From the NCBI RefSeq assembly GCF_044324785.1, contig NZ_CP172127.1: a stretch of 64,000 bases of DNA, one strand, 5' to 3'. The DNA comes from Escherichia coli. Its GTDB lineage: Bacteria; Pseudomonadota; Gammaproteobacteria; Enterobacterales; Enterobacteriaceae. Made by a program: the position numbers. Positions 9,001-21,000 of the stretch are shown one piece after another. Position 1 is the stretch's first letter. Each line of letters opens with the position of its first letter.

Positions 9001-12000
9001 GTCATGTTACAGGCTGGGATGTTCAGGCGTGCCGTGATGCAGTTCAGCATAACTTTAATGCCTGGGTGAAGGAATTCGGCACGGGCAACAGGGAATTTAA
9101 ACAGATGGTTGAACAGGCTGAGGCGTTTTTGTCGTCGTTCGGGTTCAGTCGATACCTTCCCTATCCAAACAGCGACGAGCGTGATTTACCGATTAAAGAC
9201 CTTGCCGGATACAGAAAGGGGAGTATCAGAAACGAAGATGACGAGTTCCGTTTTTACACGTTCCCGCATGTGTTTGAGGGTGAGATAGCACAGGGATTTA
9301 ATCCGTCTCACTTTGCCCGCGCGTTGAGTGCTGCCGGAATGCTGGAAGCGGGAGGCGACCGCCGTTACAAGAAAAAGGCGCTCGGCAGGATTGGCGGGAA
9401 GCAGCATATTTTTTACGTGCTGATGTTCCAGCCTGAAGCAGAAGATTAACTTCCCTGTGTGAGGTAAAAAGTTGCGGGTTATGCGGGTTATCCTGTGCAT
9501 AAGTTAATTAACTGCATGATTAAAAAGGAAATCAATAACCCGCACGTAACCCGCAAAACGGCAGTTATAACCCGCAAATGTGCGATTGTAACCCGCAAAA
9601 TTTCACTGTAAGAGTGTAAACAAGCGTAACTATCACGTTAAAACCGGAGAACAAACAGCATGACGGCGCAAATATCAGCTTACGGGCGGCTGGTGGCTGA
9701 CCCGCAGTTAAAGACCACCAGCAAGGGCACACAAATGGCGATGGCGAGTATGGCGGTCCCCCTTCCATGCAATCAGGCAGATGACGGAACGGCGACGATG
9801 TGGTTATCCGTCCTGGCGTTTGGCAGACAGGCCGACGCACTGGCAAAACACCACAAAGGCGAACTGGTGAGCGTGGCGGGTAACATGCAGGTAAGCCAGT
9901 GGACAGGCCAGAACGGCGAAACGCGGCAGGGCTGGCAGGTTATCGCAGACAGCGTAATCAGTGCGAGAACGGCGCGACCGGGCGGCAAAAAAGGCCAGCA
10001 AGGGCAGGCTACTGACGCACTGAACAGGGCAAAACAACAGGCGGGTAACGACGATCCGTACGGGGACGGGATACCGTTTTAATTCACAACAGCGAACAGA
10101 GTAATTACAGGGGAAGGCATGACAAAGCTGACCATAAACAGAAAACCGAAGGGCATTTACGGCACGCCGCAGAAAACAGCACAGGCGGCGCAGCAGCAGA
10201 ATAAAACCACATCGGCGCATAAAGTGATGCCAGATAACCAGAACACACAGCAGAAGCTCACAGGAGCAACACCGCGGCGGCGTATGACCAAACAGCAGCG
10301 TAAAAACCGCAGACGCGTTAACCGTCTTATTGAGCTATGGCCTGAATTATTCAGCCCGGAATCACCTAAGCCGCTTAAGGTGGGGATATTTGACGACCTG
10401 ATACAGGATATTGCCGCGAGAGGTATTTCACTCGGACAGGGAACACTACGCGCAACGCTGGCGCGTTATGTGCAGACTCCGCGCTATTACCGCGCCCTGG
10501 TAGCTGGTGGCGCGCGTTACGACCTGAAAGGCCAGCCGTGCGGCGAGGTAACACCACTACAACAGACGCACGCAGGAAAACTACTGGAGGAGATGAATGG
10601 AAATAGTAAGAAATGATCACGCACATGGTCGCCGTGCAGGTGATCACATTGTGGATGAAATGGCGGAAAAACAAAGAGTTGACATTATTGTCAGTGTCAC
10701 AGTCGAGAGCGCGAAGCGCCAAAATAAGCGTATAAATGATCGTTCAGATGTACATGGTGTGATCACTCGTTTACGCCAGACTTTTGTAACTCGTGAAGAG
10801 ATGATTGAAGCTATTGACCAGCATACAGCATGTATCAGCGTCAGGGATATACCAGAGATCATTGCTAACTACTTCATGATCACCAGACGCCTTTACCGGA
10901 GAAAAGACAAGAGCACGGTTAACCGTCTCCTGATGTCTGATATTCGCGAATACCTGCAAGAAAGGGGCTATGTGAATCCACCAGAACAGCACTACGGAAG
11001 AGTCGGAGGCTAACTAAAACCCTGTACCGAAGAGCGGCGGCGCGATGGGGTGAAGTAATGCAGTTGGGGAACTGACAAGGAACGGTATTACATATCAATG
11101 CGACGACTGGAATGTTCCAGGAAGGCACAGAGGCCACCGAAGCAACCGGATAATTTAGAAGACCTGAAACGGTCGCTTAAACGCACTGAAAAAGAAATGG
11201 GGATAGATGGGATCGGGAAATCAGTATGGCGTAACTACCAGAAGTAAGCACAGAGCCGGAGCAATCCGGCTTTTTTTTGGCTGAAATCAATCAATCTATT
11301 TTTGTGATAGAAATATATTTATCTACCACTTTTTTCGATCAATAATGTGCATAATTTAGTCATTAAGAGGAAATTGCTGTGAATTGTATTAACGACCTGA
11401 ACACAGGCGATGTCAGAGGTGGTTCCGTTCATCTGGATGCACAGACCGTGATGCGCCTTAAGCAGTACAGAATCGACCATGTGAACAATCACCCTGATCA
11501 GCCATTACCAGGCGTGGCGCAGATTGTCAGACATGCCGTAAACGCCTGGCTTAATCAGAATGGTTTTGCATCGGGGGGTGAGTAATGAATCGCTGGTACA
11601 GCATCAAAGCAGAGGGACGCCAATGTTATCTAACTCAGGTTTTATGAATTCTGACTCCCGATTCAAAATAGGAGGTTACTAATGCCAGTCGTACCAACAG
11701 TATCCGGACGTCAGGTTGAGAGCCGTGGAGTTCAGTCAGCAGGCTTGCAGACGTTTTCTCAGCCAGGTATTGGTGATGCTTTTGTTCGGGCAGGGGCAGA
11801 GGCAATTGATGTTTTTGGTCAGGCAAAACAGCGTGCCAATATTGCCTTGATTCAGGAGGCATCCCTTAAACTCAGTCAGACAGGCAGTGATCTGCTGAAT
11901 AATCCTGAAACAGGATTGCTTAACCTGAAAGGGAAAAATGCTATTGGAAAAGGCCATGAGTATACACAGCAGTTTGATGCTCAGATCGAACAACTGGCTA

Positions 12001-18000: not shown

Positions 18001-21000
18001 ACCATTCTGGCTAACAAGGGATGGAGCAATGAGGACTGGGCCATCATGGCAGCGGCAGAACTCAGGCCGATGACTACTGCCGGGCATATGGGGATGACGC
18101 CAGACGCGATTTACGCTGTGCCCGATAACGTAATAGCCGACATTATGGCAGACCGTATTACCCGGATTCGTGCCGGGAGTGAAAAGGCACTGGCAGCCCT
18201 TGGAGATCTCCCTCCAGAACGCCTGAAACGGATGAAAGAAGCATTCGACGCTGAGGCTGAGCAGACCATCACGCGCATGATTCGTAATGCACGCGCTGAA
18301 GCAGCCCAGAAATTGCTGGGAATTACGCACGGTGAGATGACCAATGCTGTGACCACCGCTACGGGTATTGATACATATGCCCGTGATGATGCTGGCGAGT
18401 TAATGAAGAGCTTCATGCTCTTCAAAACAACCCCATTTGCTGGATTTCGGCAACTTGTTAACAGAACACGGGATTTGGACACCGTTCCGGCCATTAAATT
18501 TCTGGCCTCATATATCGGGGGAACAACTCTTGCTGGTATGTTTGCGATCCAGATGAACAGTTTGTTAAATGGTAATGATCCGCTGGATATGACAAAACCA
18601 ACCACATGGGTTCAGGCTTTACTGAAAGGTGGTTCGTTCGGTATCTACGGTGATTTTATTTTCCAGGACCATACGCAATATGGCTCCAGAATCGGTGCCA
18701 CTATGGGTGGCCCTGTGTTGAGCTTTGCAGAGCAGTTAACAAAATTACTGATTACTAACCCACAGAAGGCTCTACAGGGTGAAGAAACATCATTCGGTGC
18801 CGATGCACTGAAAACAGCCCGCATGATCACCCCATTCGCAAACCTGTGGTATGCGAAAGCGATAACCAATCACCTGATATTGCAACAACTTCAGGAGATG
18901 GCAAACCCTGGTTACAATGATCGAGTAAGGGACCGCGCGCAACGGGAGTTCGACATAACGAGTTGGTGGGAACCGGGTGCTATTGCGCCACGTAGAGCAC
19001 CGGATTTTGGAAAGGCGGTGGGGAACTGATGACGAGAGATAAAATTGAATATATTGCTTCTCTTAAATATGAAGCTGAGAAATGGAGAAGGATTGGCGGG
19101 TGGGGAACATTAATATCACTCTCTGCTTTACTTATAGACTCCTGGTTCAGACATATTGATGCAGCATCATTACTTTTTGAATCAGCAGTACTTGGTGGAT
19201 TCATTTGCTGTTGGGGTGGTAATTATGATCGGGCGTCCAAACATAAGAGAGAACTTGACGCGATATGTTTTGCTTTATTCGGTAAGGATTACGAAAGTTC
19301 TGACCTTGATATAATTGAATTCAACAAAACGGAACTATCGTGACATGTCACAGGCCGCTTTCGCGGCCTTGTTTTTAACGAATGCCACCGCCGCCCGGGC
19401 GGGAATTCGCAGATAAAAAAGCACGCTGCACGGTTTTATTAATACTTATACCATTAGGATTGATCCTTCAATGGACAATCCTTCCATCGTGTGGCCAGCC
19501 ATTCATATTCTTTGTCTTTTCTTCAGTATCGGCTTTGCATCTTCTACACCCTGAAAGATGTCGTTTTATGGTGTATCTGATGATTTATTCCCTAACAATA
19601 GATATTCGAAAAATTAATCAGTTAAAACAATTATTTGGATAATTTCAGGTAAAACTATCTTAATCTTCTGGTGGATCTCAATGCGTAGTGACGGTATCGG
19701 GATTAAGGGCGTGGATATTCGCGATATATGCCGCTACACCCCTCAACAGTAATAGATATGAGCTTTTCACGCTCTCCTTTCACTGCTGAGAACGGCAACA
19801 ACGTGCCACAGGAACGCGCTGTAATCGATTCTGACGCACTTAATTGCGTTGGGTAATGGTTTTTGCCAGCCTGTGGGGGTAACTCTGTTTTATGAGGCTT
19901 TGGCTATAGTGCAAAAATACACTTTGTCTTGCCTCTCAATTTGATGAGACTGGAACGACAACAGGACAGACCACCAGCAACAGTTACCGTATTCAGCCGT
20001 TCTGTGGCACCAGTGGAACTATCAACCCCTGCTTTCAGCAATGTGTTTGCGGGTTATTTTGGGGCGTTTGCGGGTTATTTGGGATGTTTTGCGGGTTATG
20101 TGATGCTTGAATAATGAACAGTGTATTTTGCAACATATTGATACTAAAGAACAAAAAATAGTTAGCATACTAAGATAACCCGGTAACCCGCATAACCCGC
20201 ACTGTTTTGTATATATATACGAAAAATTGCATTCAGGAGGGGGGGAGCGAAATCCCTACAATCCATTGCTTATGGGACCGCCCGCCTCGTCAAATTTTTA
20301 CACCCGCGAAATAAAAAAATACTTCACGCTGGTGGGCATGATGCTGATATGGGAGGCTTCCATAACGCCACCATTCGGAACTATGCAAATCTGCATAGAA
20401 AAGGGGATGCCTGATACAATACCCTCGCCCGATAAAATCACACCGATAAACTCATCTGCCACGAGTAGAAAGAGCGAACGAACCCGATACGCAGTAATGC
20501 TTGTCGGGTACAGCTTTTTAAGGCGGCTGTAGATATCAGGCCATCCGTGATCATCCACCAGCGAGATAGCCGATAACGATGACGCATAACCCTCAAGCGA
20601 GGGATAAATGTGTATAGAAATGTGTATAGAATTGATTTTAGAACTCGCAGGATTCGCGCTATTACTGGCCTTGTGTGATGTTGTATTGTTCCCTTCGCCC
20701 GCTCCAATTTATCTTCACCTCATCAACCTGTCATTTTTGTTGTATCTGATTTTCTATATTATCTTAATTCAATCGCTTCAGACTTTTCGCAATCGCCGAA
20801 ATACTTCCCCATTTTTTTGTAAATAAAAGCGTTTACGCAATGCAATCCATTTGTAACAACCCAGGTAAAATACCTTATTTTCAAGTTGTTAAATAAGTGG
20901 TTATCTACGCTTTTAACAAACGATTGATGGAATCTTTTATGAAAGGGAAATCTACATTAACTCTTCTGCTCGCTGGTATATTTTCATGCGGCACATGCCA

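Follow-up and report, generated by a model that had tools for sequence, protein, structure and literature searches.

We describe a chromosomal island of Escherichia coli that is, with high confidence, a phage-inducible chromosomal island (PICI) carrying homologues of podovirus ejection proteins. The island is integrated at glyU, a tRNA-Gly(CCC) gene, within a 64,000-nucleotide stretch of contig NZ_CP172127.1 (assembly GCF_044324785.1) that was analysed at its full length and is called the window below. It measures 19,145 bp between two 19-nt repeats, and 40% of it is taken up by an operon of four genes, here called A, B, C and D. By homology, A, B and C encode the large internal virion (ejection, or core) proteins of a Uetakevirus-type podovirus: they are counterparts of gp15, gp16 and gp17 of Salmonella phage epsilon15, i.e., of the first and second parts of internal virion protein C (IVP-C) and of IVP-D, respectively. 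The ejection-protein families themselves are already known from phages, and it is their context in a satellite that is the interesting part. What is new here, to judge from the comparisons given below, is a second, independent PICI with a podovirus ejection module in its virion slot, this time of the epsilon15 type and with an orphan domain inserted in the gp16 homologue. With moderate confidence, we favour an interpretation in which the island, as a satellite of epsilon15/phiV10-like podoviruses, would supply its own ejection proteins for DNA delivery. The operon and its borders are as follows.

11379-11585, plus strand: 68-amino-acid (aa) open reading frame (ORF), o68; PHROG 4934, function unknown
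11614-11680, plus strand: 3'-end relic of a phage IVP-B (T7 gp14-family) gene; left edge of the phage-derived segment
11682-14213, plus strand: gene A, 843 aa
14213-16273, plus strand: gene B, 686 aa
14948-15649 (aa 246-479 of B): orphan central domain, which replaces the middle of gp16
16273-19029, plus strand: gene C, 918 aa from the ATG (the ORF list starts at an upstream GTG, 16252)
19029-19343, plus strand: gene D, 104 aa
19339-19413, plus strand: terminator and right edge of the phage-derived segment; matches the epsilon15 terminator
19352-19369: terminator-like hairpin and T run after D

In a PHROG search, A was assigned to phrog_992 (E 5e-291), B to phrog_1145 (E 2e-136) and C to phrog_684 (E 1e-294). 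When 50,697 phage records were searched by tblastn, the best matches of A, B and C were found in epsilon15 and its relatives: A is 80% identical to gp15 at the amino acid level and C is 89% identical to gp17, while the identity of B to gp16 amounts to 89% in its first part (aa 1-245) and to 74% in its last (aa 480-686), with the middle unmatched. Similarity at the DNA level amounts to 76-79% and extends from one base before the start of A to the stop codon of C. A, B and C follow one another in the epsilon15 order, and their stop codons overlap the next start codons as they do in that phage; the junctions read gaaTAATGtct (A/B), ccaTAATGaaa (B/C) and aacTGATGacg (C/D). Because the terminators downstream of D and of epsilon15 gp18 are homologous, D occupies the gp18 slot, while no PHROG homologue of D was found. 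The overlaps, the Shine-Dalgarno sequence AGGAGG 8 nt upstream of the A start codon and the terminator after D bear out the proposal of an initial annotation, made from the sequence alone, that A-D form one translationally coupled, co-directional operon. Since the 68-aa ORF is placed between a strong terminator (11252-11273) and A, it is probably the first gene of this late transcription unit; a search for a consensus sigma-70 promoter of the operon found none. Pfam has no match for the 68-aa ORF. Its identity with epsilon15 gp3, which is also 68 aa long, was considered and rejected, as the two do not align and their PHROGs differ.

In epsilon15, gp13 and gp14 are the homologues of IVP-A and IVP-B, gp15 and gp16 are together equivalent to IVP-C, and gp17 is IVP-D, of the T7 gp16 class (PMC4819975). 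Internal virion proteins leave the particle before the DNA and form a channel across the cell envelope (PMC8954989), and a passage of PMC12391199 cites gp15 and gp17/16 as parts of the packaging/injection device of epsilon15. The island proteins resemble the ejectosome built by epsilon15 gp15-17 and by T7 gp15/gp16 in that they are direct homologues of the epsilon15 proteins, are encoded in the same order, and have a muralytic domain in the first protein. This domain (aa 249-403 of A) was recognised by its resemblance to two PDB sequences, the N-terminal part of a phage protein of 1295 aa (entry 9vvp, 9vvp_L) and the endolysin 7q47. The PDB sequence search returned nothing for B, for C, or for a four-sequence IVP-D profile. 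The difference from the phages is that their genes are located inside a complete virion operon whereas the island genes stand alone, and that the central domain of B is absent from phage records.

Neither Pfam nor NCBIfam has a match for A, B or C, and the defence models of PADLOC-DB 2.0 leave all four proteins unmatched at E <= 0.01. These empty searches explain why a motif-based reader could not place the proteins; RefSeq labels A, B and C 'hypothetical protein' and, as long as no Pfam or NCBIfam model exists, they will keep being flagged as unknown cargo. The initial annotation had called the three large proteins unassignable to any known family, which the PHROG assignments and the 74-89% identity to epsilon15 gp15-17 contradict. 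Its statement that they lack signatures stands for Pfam and NCBIfam and fails for the muralytic domain of A and the HEALH motif of B, and the compositional resemblance to ejection proteins that it noticed is real. The homology found is to ejection proteins encoded next to capsid genes in complete prophages, the first of the outcomes that the annotation itself had listed as speaking against a new protein system; it removes that reading, although intact genes of this kind in a satellite are still odd. Two of the three roles proposed at that time, a defence system and a membrane-active toxin, both unrelated to virions, could draw on the hydrophobic Gly/Ala-rich stretches of the proteins, on their location in a mobile island and on the empty Pfam search; these roles are hardly credible, because the proteins are homologous over nearly their full length to virion proteins from characterised phages, with the gene order conserved, and because the PADLOC search was empty. 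The evidence supports the third role, that of virion-associated proteins belonging to an unusual satellite. The two transmembrane helices predicted for D fared unequally: aa 43-63 is clear, being the single segment above the usual hydropathy threshold, but the first candidate, aa 22-40, is weak (about 0.8 by hand estimate).

The remainder of the island is made up of the following features, which, taken together in the order int-AlpA-Ant-Icd-DUF4222-DUF927-SSB-ProQ-PerC with attachment (att) repeats and iterons, identify it by gene content as an element of the PICI type found in Gram-negative bacteria.

1488-1561, plus strand: tRNA-Gly(CCC), glyU (ARAGORN)
1544-1562, plus strand: attL core TTCCCTTCGCCCGCTCCAA, the 3' end of tRNA-Gly(CCC); exact 19-nt direct repeat
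1687-2940, plus strand: tyrosine integrase (RefSeq annotation of identical elements)
3881-4004: repeat/palindrome array 5' of alpA, with a 33-nt tandem repeat at 3939-4004 and two more palindromes, copies of TACCCTnAGGGT, at 3881-3919
4094-4291, plus strand: AlpA-family regulator/excisionase (PF05930 on the identical gene; PHROG 2790, 66)
4367-5741, plus strand: AntA and BRO-N antirepressor-like genes (PHROGs; Pfam AntA, Bro-N)
7024-9449, plus strand: DUF4222 gene and DUF927 primase-helicase of 708 aa (PHROG 1139, E 4e-174)
9473-9597: iteron cluster 1, six copies of TGCGGGTTAT, after the primase gene
9660-11013, plus strand: SSB, ProQ/FinO-like gene and 138-aa ORF (RefSeq and Pfam annotation of identical genes)
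11022-11273, plus strand: frameshifted PerC-family gene (11022-11247; RefSeq), then a terminator (11252-11273) closing the upstream operon
20048-20201: iteron cluster 2, five copies of TGCGGGTTAT, beside attR
20689-20707, plus strand: attR core TTCCCTTCGCCCGCTCCAA; exact 19-nt direct repeat

The 10-nt iteron TGCGGGTTAT has 18 matches in the window compared to 4.3 expected, and 11 of them fall, in both orientations, into the two clusters, which are about 10.5 kb apart and which would constitute a bipartite origin. AlpA acts as the PICI master regulator in relatives of the island (PMC11773190), and the array upstream of its gene is a candidate operator through which the island would be silenced or switched on. 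No capsid or portal families were found among the ORFs of the window by PHROG search, and the sole terminase-named hit among them is a partial match of the 138-aa ORF to phrog_1711 (E 1e-10); this ORF has no Pfam match. The 19.1-kb element has neither lysis genes nor a full structural set, and its virion-related genes are A, B and C only. In the virion operons of phages, such genes are preceded by those for the tail tube, IVP-A and IVP-B, whereas in the island no homologue of epsilon15 gp1-gp14 or of gp20 was found. A complete or decayed Uetakevirus (epsilon15) prophage was considered and rejected, because the similarity is confined to 11614-19413, the backbone is that of a PICI, and the integrase is 32% identical to that of epsilon15.

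Thus, the operon is indeed the payload of a tRNA-integrated, satellite-type element without capsid, portal and terminase genes, as the initial annotation had it. The same annotation took the element for a P4-type satellite with a cargo slot for defence genes, which does not hold: the backbone is of the PICI type, the slot is filled with capsid genes in close relatives, and PADLOC is empty. The island shares with P4-type satellites the integration into a tRNA gene, a large primase-helicase, the putative bipartite iteron origin, which recalls P4 ori/crr, and presumably the dependence on a helper. It differs from them in that homologues of sid, psu and delta were not found in its ORFs by PHROG search, in that its primase is of the DUF927 class, and in that the presumed helper is a podovirus and not a P2-like myovirus.

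The closest backbones belong to capsid-forming PICIs (cf-PICIs), whose prototype is EcCIEDL933 (Alqurainy et al., bioRxiv 10.1101/2022.09.08.507074). The primases of the elements in E. coli OkiPb01704 and TOE17 are 88% and 84% identical to that of the island, the gene order is the same as far as PerC, and a virion operon is found in the same position and orientation. In these two elements, genes for the major capsid protein, an HK97 protease, the portal, connectors, an HNH protein, TerS and TerL come directly after ProQ/PerC; this module belongs to the cf-PICIs, and the island has podovirus ejection proteins instead. Elements of the cf-PICI class are defined by this capsid-terminase module, and they take only tails, from siphoviruses (bioRxiv 10.1101/2022.09.08.507074). 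A tblastn search with the cf-PICI module found it in three loci (L022, L024 and L025). When primases were scanned in one genome per species, seven relatives came up in other genera: three of them (in Winslowiella and twice in Pantoea) have a capsid module and the other four have other small cargo. The cf-PICI-type relative in OkiPb01704 (L017, 6959-23697) is itself inserted into a lambdoid prophage, whose gene for the terminase large subunit it interrupts, with fragments of TerL on both sides, a 'helper-embedded satellite' configuration described in PMC10111431.

Apart from one element, we found no literature on satellites with ejection-protein modules. This element is EcCIMP1, the PICI of E. 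coli MP1, whose excision requires the podovirus Kapi1 and which is transduced by Kapi1 (Pick, Stadel and Raivio, ISME J 2025, PMC11773190). After its DUF927 primase, EcCIMP1 encodes members of PHROG 651 (P22 gp14-like), 598 ('DNA ejection'), 917/2534 ('released from the phage upon host infection') and 770 ('DNA transfer protein', with a transglycosylase domain); by these family assignments the block is a complete P22-type ejection set. EcCIMP1 and the island have in common int, AlpA, AntA, DUF4222, an Icd-like gene, the DUF927 primase, a podovirus ejection block and PerC, a length of about 20 kb, i.e., half of the helper genome, a tRNA integration site, and the absence of capsid, terminase and lysis genes. 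Their integrases are 66% identical, their AntA proteins 74.5% and their primases 62%. Unlike the island, EcCIMP1 has a P22-type set of its own that includes IVP-A and IVP-B, whereas the island has the epsilon15-type gp15-17 only, and the two modules, being unrelated in sequence, imply different helpers. The attachment site of EcCIMP1 is in tRNA-Thr and that of the island is in glyU. It follows from the gene maps that one and the same slot in related islands is occupied by a capsid module, by a P22-type ejection module or by an epsilon15-type ejection module.

It is conceivable that the module is a functionless passenger: recombination between a PICI and its helper would have taken a 7.8-kb piece of the late operon, which would still be there either owing to the recency of the event or as padding that brings the island up to a packageable half-genome length. 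That the end of the IVP-B gene is truncated at the left junction, that IVP-A and IVP-B are absent, that both flanks are near-identical to present-day E. coli phages and that the distribution is limited to Escherichia and Shigella would all agree with such an origin. The whole 21 kb is present at glyU, at 98-99% identity, in 18 complete genomes, and the core (4323-20563) is found, in addition, between yicC and dinD, where it follows another integrase gene. The full operon was found in 48 of 5,426 complete E. coli genomes and the matching backbone in 44; the island is present in about 1% of complete genomes, among which are avian pathogenic (APEC) and extraintestinal pathogenic (ExPEC) strains; the exact sequence of B is found on at least 901 contigs of E. 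coli, E. albertii and Shigella. Between island copies, B has accumulated 15-16 synonymous and no non-synonymous changes, which are spread over the gene and include the island-specific middle. The ratio of non-synonymous to synonymous substitution rates (dN/dS) is 0.07-0.29 for C and 0.16-0.33 for A, compared to 0.05-0.18 for the primase. By these measures the genes of the operon are under purifying selection. The ORFs are intact in nearly all copies read, with a frameshift in C in one of them (L012), which can be counted in favour of a passenger. Against it speak the absence of non-synonymous changes in B, its element-specific domain included, the dN/dS of C of at most 0.29, the intactness of three ORFs of 2.0-2.8 kb across two attachment sites and hundreds of contigs, the location of the breakpoints at gene boundaries, and the fact that a second island independently holds a different podovirus-type ejection set in the same slot. 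We therefore judge a passenger quite improbable.

The island and phages of the Uetakevirus type exchange DNA. About 350 further genomes contain ordinary Uetakevirus-type prophages adjoining yfgI, the gp15 of which matches the first 1,527 nt of A at 84-93%; the C-terminus of their gp15 as well as their gp16 and gp17 are of another type, and gp17 of the phiV10 type is 26% identical to C. Few E. coli prophages have the epsilon15-type cassette, and phage EC.W1-9 has a third type. On the left, the IVP-B gene of Escherichia phage EC.W1-9 ends in a sequence that is 100% identical to the 67 nt before A, which are therefore a relic of the capture junction, and gp15 of E. coli prophages is 92-96% identical to A over nt 1-1535. 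On the right, an E. coli Uetakevirus-type prophage has, downstream of its ejection operon, a sequence that is 98.7% identical to the 75 nt at 19339-19413. Substitutions in A are clustered at nt 900-1350 and 2100-2400, i.e., A is a mosaic, and the mosaic patches differ between island copies and match the alleles of co-resident prophages. For example, in the ExPEC strain XM, gp15 of the co-resident prophage and the island A share 96.4% identity over 1.5 kb, and this match includes a patch where the allele of the window is only 73-74% identical. Because of these identities to EC.W1-9, to the prophage flank and in strain XM, the C-terminus of A, B, C and the small gene can be described as a variable block between phage-shared arms. 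Recombination between the island and Uetakevirus-type prophages is ongoing.

Such exchange is also what would be expected if the island were mainly a reservoir, shuttling an alternative ejection cassette to its helpers by homologous recombination through the flanks, with an indirect benefit to itself. The position of the variable block, flanked on both sides by sequences with 92-100% identity to E. coli Uetakevirus-type prophages, the mosaic patches in A matching co-resident prophages, and the existence of at least three cassette types in the E. coli phages of this group are in line with that. This, however, would explain recombination and not why the island keeps the genes under selection. 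Moreover, epsilon15-type E. coli prophages are rare, with no more than about 20 records (60-80% identity), and are only 76-80% identical to the island copy, and thus a recent donation from island to phage is not seen; the central domain of B, in addition, is in none of the 50,697 phage records. We consider it very unlikely that this is the main role of the island.

The carriers of the island also tend to carry a phage of this kind. The first 1,527 nt of A, when used as a query, were found in 430 places in 404 genomes, never in more than two places per genome, which means that 26 genomes have two copies. At least 10 of the two-copy genomes are verified island carriers in which the second copy lies behind a gene for a 'virion core protein, T7 gp14 family', i.e., in a prophage. 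Strains XM and PU-1 are natural examples in which a phiV10-type prophage accompanies the island. A Uetakevirus-type prophage is therefore present in 10-26 of the 48 carriers compared to 356 of the 5,378 non-carriers (6.6%), for which Fisher's exact test gives p values of 1e-3 (lower bound) and 3e-18 (upper bound), these counts being bounds that are uncorrected for clonal relatedness.

The length of the island is suggestive as well. Two copies of 19,145 bp amount to 38.3 kb, compared to 39.1-40.6 kb for genomes of helper-type phages, and the island has 0.48 of the length of the epsilon15 genome; EcCIMP1 is 19,963 bp long, or 39.9 kb when doubled, compared to 39.4 kb for Kapi1 (0.51). An island of about half the helper length, and EcCIMP1 likewise, fits headful packaging of dimers. 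An exact attP-type junction, consisting of the integrase side, the 19-nt core and the right end of the island, is present in metagenome contig L035 (Ga0209547_100127, 11431-14517), which may represent an excised circle or else a tandem array. The junction is part of a related element, which shares the integrase and attachment site and has a RepA-type helicase and a different virion-like module that comprises a protease-like protein of PHROG 6216, members of PHROG 11810 and 14324, a 680-aa protein of PHROG 7694 and a TerS-like helix-turn-helix protein; the 680-aa protein shares the RGIRNNNPGN muralytic domain. No attP junction was found in IMG/VR, and the six copies there are ordinary integrated or partial copies. 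The Klebsiella record ST11-OXA245phi3.2 was considered and turned out to be an ordinary prophage.

The interpretation of the island as a satellite of epsilon15/phiV10-like podoviruses that brings its own ejection proteins can be put into the following sequence of events. When a helper of this kind enters the lytic cycle, AlpA would switch the island on, the integrase would excise it, the DUF927 primase would replicate it from the iteron origin, and the operon o68-A-B-C-D would be expressed. A, B and C would then be loaded onto the portal in helper procapsids, alongside or instead of the helper gp15-17, with IVP-A, IVP-B and all other parts of the virion coming from the helper. The 19.1-kb island DNA, about half of a helper genome, would be packaged by the headful mechanism into unmodified capsids, probably as dimers. 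In the next cell, the satellite-encoded proteins would be ejected first and would build the trans-envelope channel for the DNA; this channel would become one of the epsilon15 type and not of the phiV10 type common in E. coli, and the private domain of B would enter the recipient. One possible benefit to the island is a channel that differs from the type common among E. coli helpers and could escape entry exclusion; the evidence would also be consistent with the module complementing defective helper prophages or delivering the private domain of B into the recipient. The mode of action of the module in a satellite is, in this form, plausible.

Several observations weigh against the role in DNA delivery. 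IVP-A and IVP-B homologues are absent, and the IVP-B relic shows a recombination cut as in an accidental capture. Ejection proteins enter the procapsid before the DNA, which means that the proteins of the satellite and its DNA are not physically linked and makes the selective advantage less obvious. No packaging-specificity gene of a satellite (TerS, Rpp or a pac copy) was identified in the element. An ejection module was found in none of the seven relatives in other genera, and in no relative outside Escherichia. Part of the purifying-selection signal of A may have been imported with phage alleles, and the counts behind the association with prophages are the uncorrected bounds given above. 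Finally, the authors of EcCIMP1 regard the genes of its module as candidates for packaging and not for ejection, and the frequency of transfer that they report is very low (PMC11773190). A search of the rest of the island for a helper pac site, promoter or other helper sequence found none at word size 9.

A different function is that of an exclusion or interference module, in which the ejection paralogues, together with D, would poison the virion cores of the helper or, from within the envelope, obstruct the channel of a superinfecting phage of the helper's kind. Interference with helpers is common among satellites, and the contribution of EcCIMP1 to superinfection immunity makes it plausible here, even though the responsible gene of EcCIMP1 was never mapped and the titres of Kapi1 after induction are unchanged by EcCIMP1. 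The slot after C could be read in the same way. It varies among island copies, being occupied by D (104 aa) or by genes for 113 and 95 aa (L003, 21315-22029), the second of which shares 92.5% DNA identity with the gene 3' of gp17 in the co-resident prophage of that strain; D and its alternatives occupy a variable, moron-like slot of lower G+C content directly 3' of the ejection genes. On the other side, PADLOC is empty for A-D, the full-length conservation of three large proteins and the intact muralytic domain exceed what a decoy would need, and the absence of a consensus sigma-70 promoter fits expression after induction better than constitutive expression. Interference is, in our estimate, unlikely, and we return to DNA delivery as the favoured function.

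The part of the module that has no counterpart in phages is the central domain of B, with an HEALH (HExxH) motif at aa 355. A single-sequence AlphaFold model of the middle of B places this motif in a helix after three short strands, but its mean predicted local distance difference test score (pLDDT) is 42. A zincin-like metallopeptidase, for which the domain was considered, would show an HExxH helix behind a small beta-sheet, a third metal ligand and a recognisable fold. The domain has no tblastn match in the phage records, none in Pfam or the PDB and none by a word-indexed protein search, and among 1.84 billion representative proteins its single match is a 74-aa fragment of itself. Full-length B, in spite of its presence on at least 901 contigs, was returned neither by the word-indexed search nor by the search of 50% representatives when these were queried with the central domain; the representative of its cluster is probably a gp16 without the insert, and clustering can thus hide novelty at the level of domains. 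Since the middle of gp16 also differs between the cassette types of phages, the central position of B looks like a site of swappable payload.

A broader proposal, which we put forward tentatively and consider doubtful, is that satellites of short-tailed phages form a distinct class whose members bring an ejectosome matched to the helper. The common slot would hold a capsid/terminase module where the helper is a siphovirus, a P22-type module where it is P22-like, as in EcCIMP1, and an epsilon15-type module in the island described here. Hijacked particles would then receive a different channel and could enter cells that exclude the channel type of the helper, the HExxH domain of B would be an injected effector, and D may be a cognate entry-exclusion protein.

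Known satellites alter the size of capsids, redirect packaging or build capsids of their own; to our knowledge, none has been described as supplying DNA-injection machinery. That two islands of related backbone have the same slot filled with ejection modules of unrelated podovirus lineages makes this idea concrete and testable. If true, it would account for some of the many 'Type C' PICIs without recognisable packaging genes. Uetakevirus-type prophages are indicated as the helpers of an island that about 1% of complete E. coli genomes carry, and the modules are natural chimeras with which the parts of ejection proteins that touch the virion could be separated from those that touch the cell envelope.

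Some features of the island and its surroundings lie outside these questions. A 267-aa ORF is located between the integrase gene and alpA, and small YlcI-like (minus strand) and Icd-like (plus strand) genes are annotated 3' of the BRO-N gene. A 396-aa ORF at 5581-6771 overlaps the latter two; its translation is Cys/Ser/Phe-rich and of low complexity, and it is probably not a gene. The frameshift in the PerC-family gene is annotated in identical RefSeq copies at both attachment sites, and the gene is intact in other relatives, EcCIMP1 included. Beyond attR, a region of 34-42% G+C (20897-30116) contains genes for a GH15 glycoside hydrolase, a GhoT/OrtT-like small toxin, an AraC-type regulator and a type III secretion secretin, and an HrpJ-like gene; we take this region to be a secretion island of the E. 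coli type III secretion system 2 (ETT2) type, located at glyU. In other strains, the attR side is followed by genes for a Trp/Tyr permease and a thiolase instead.

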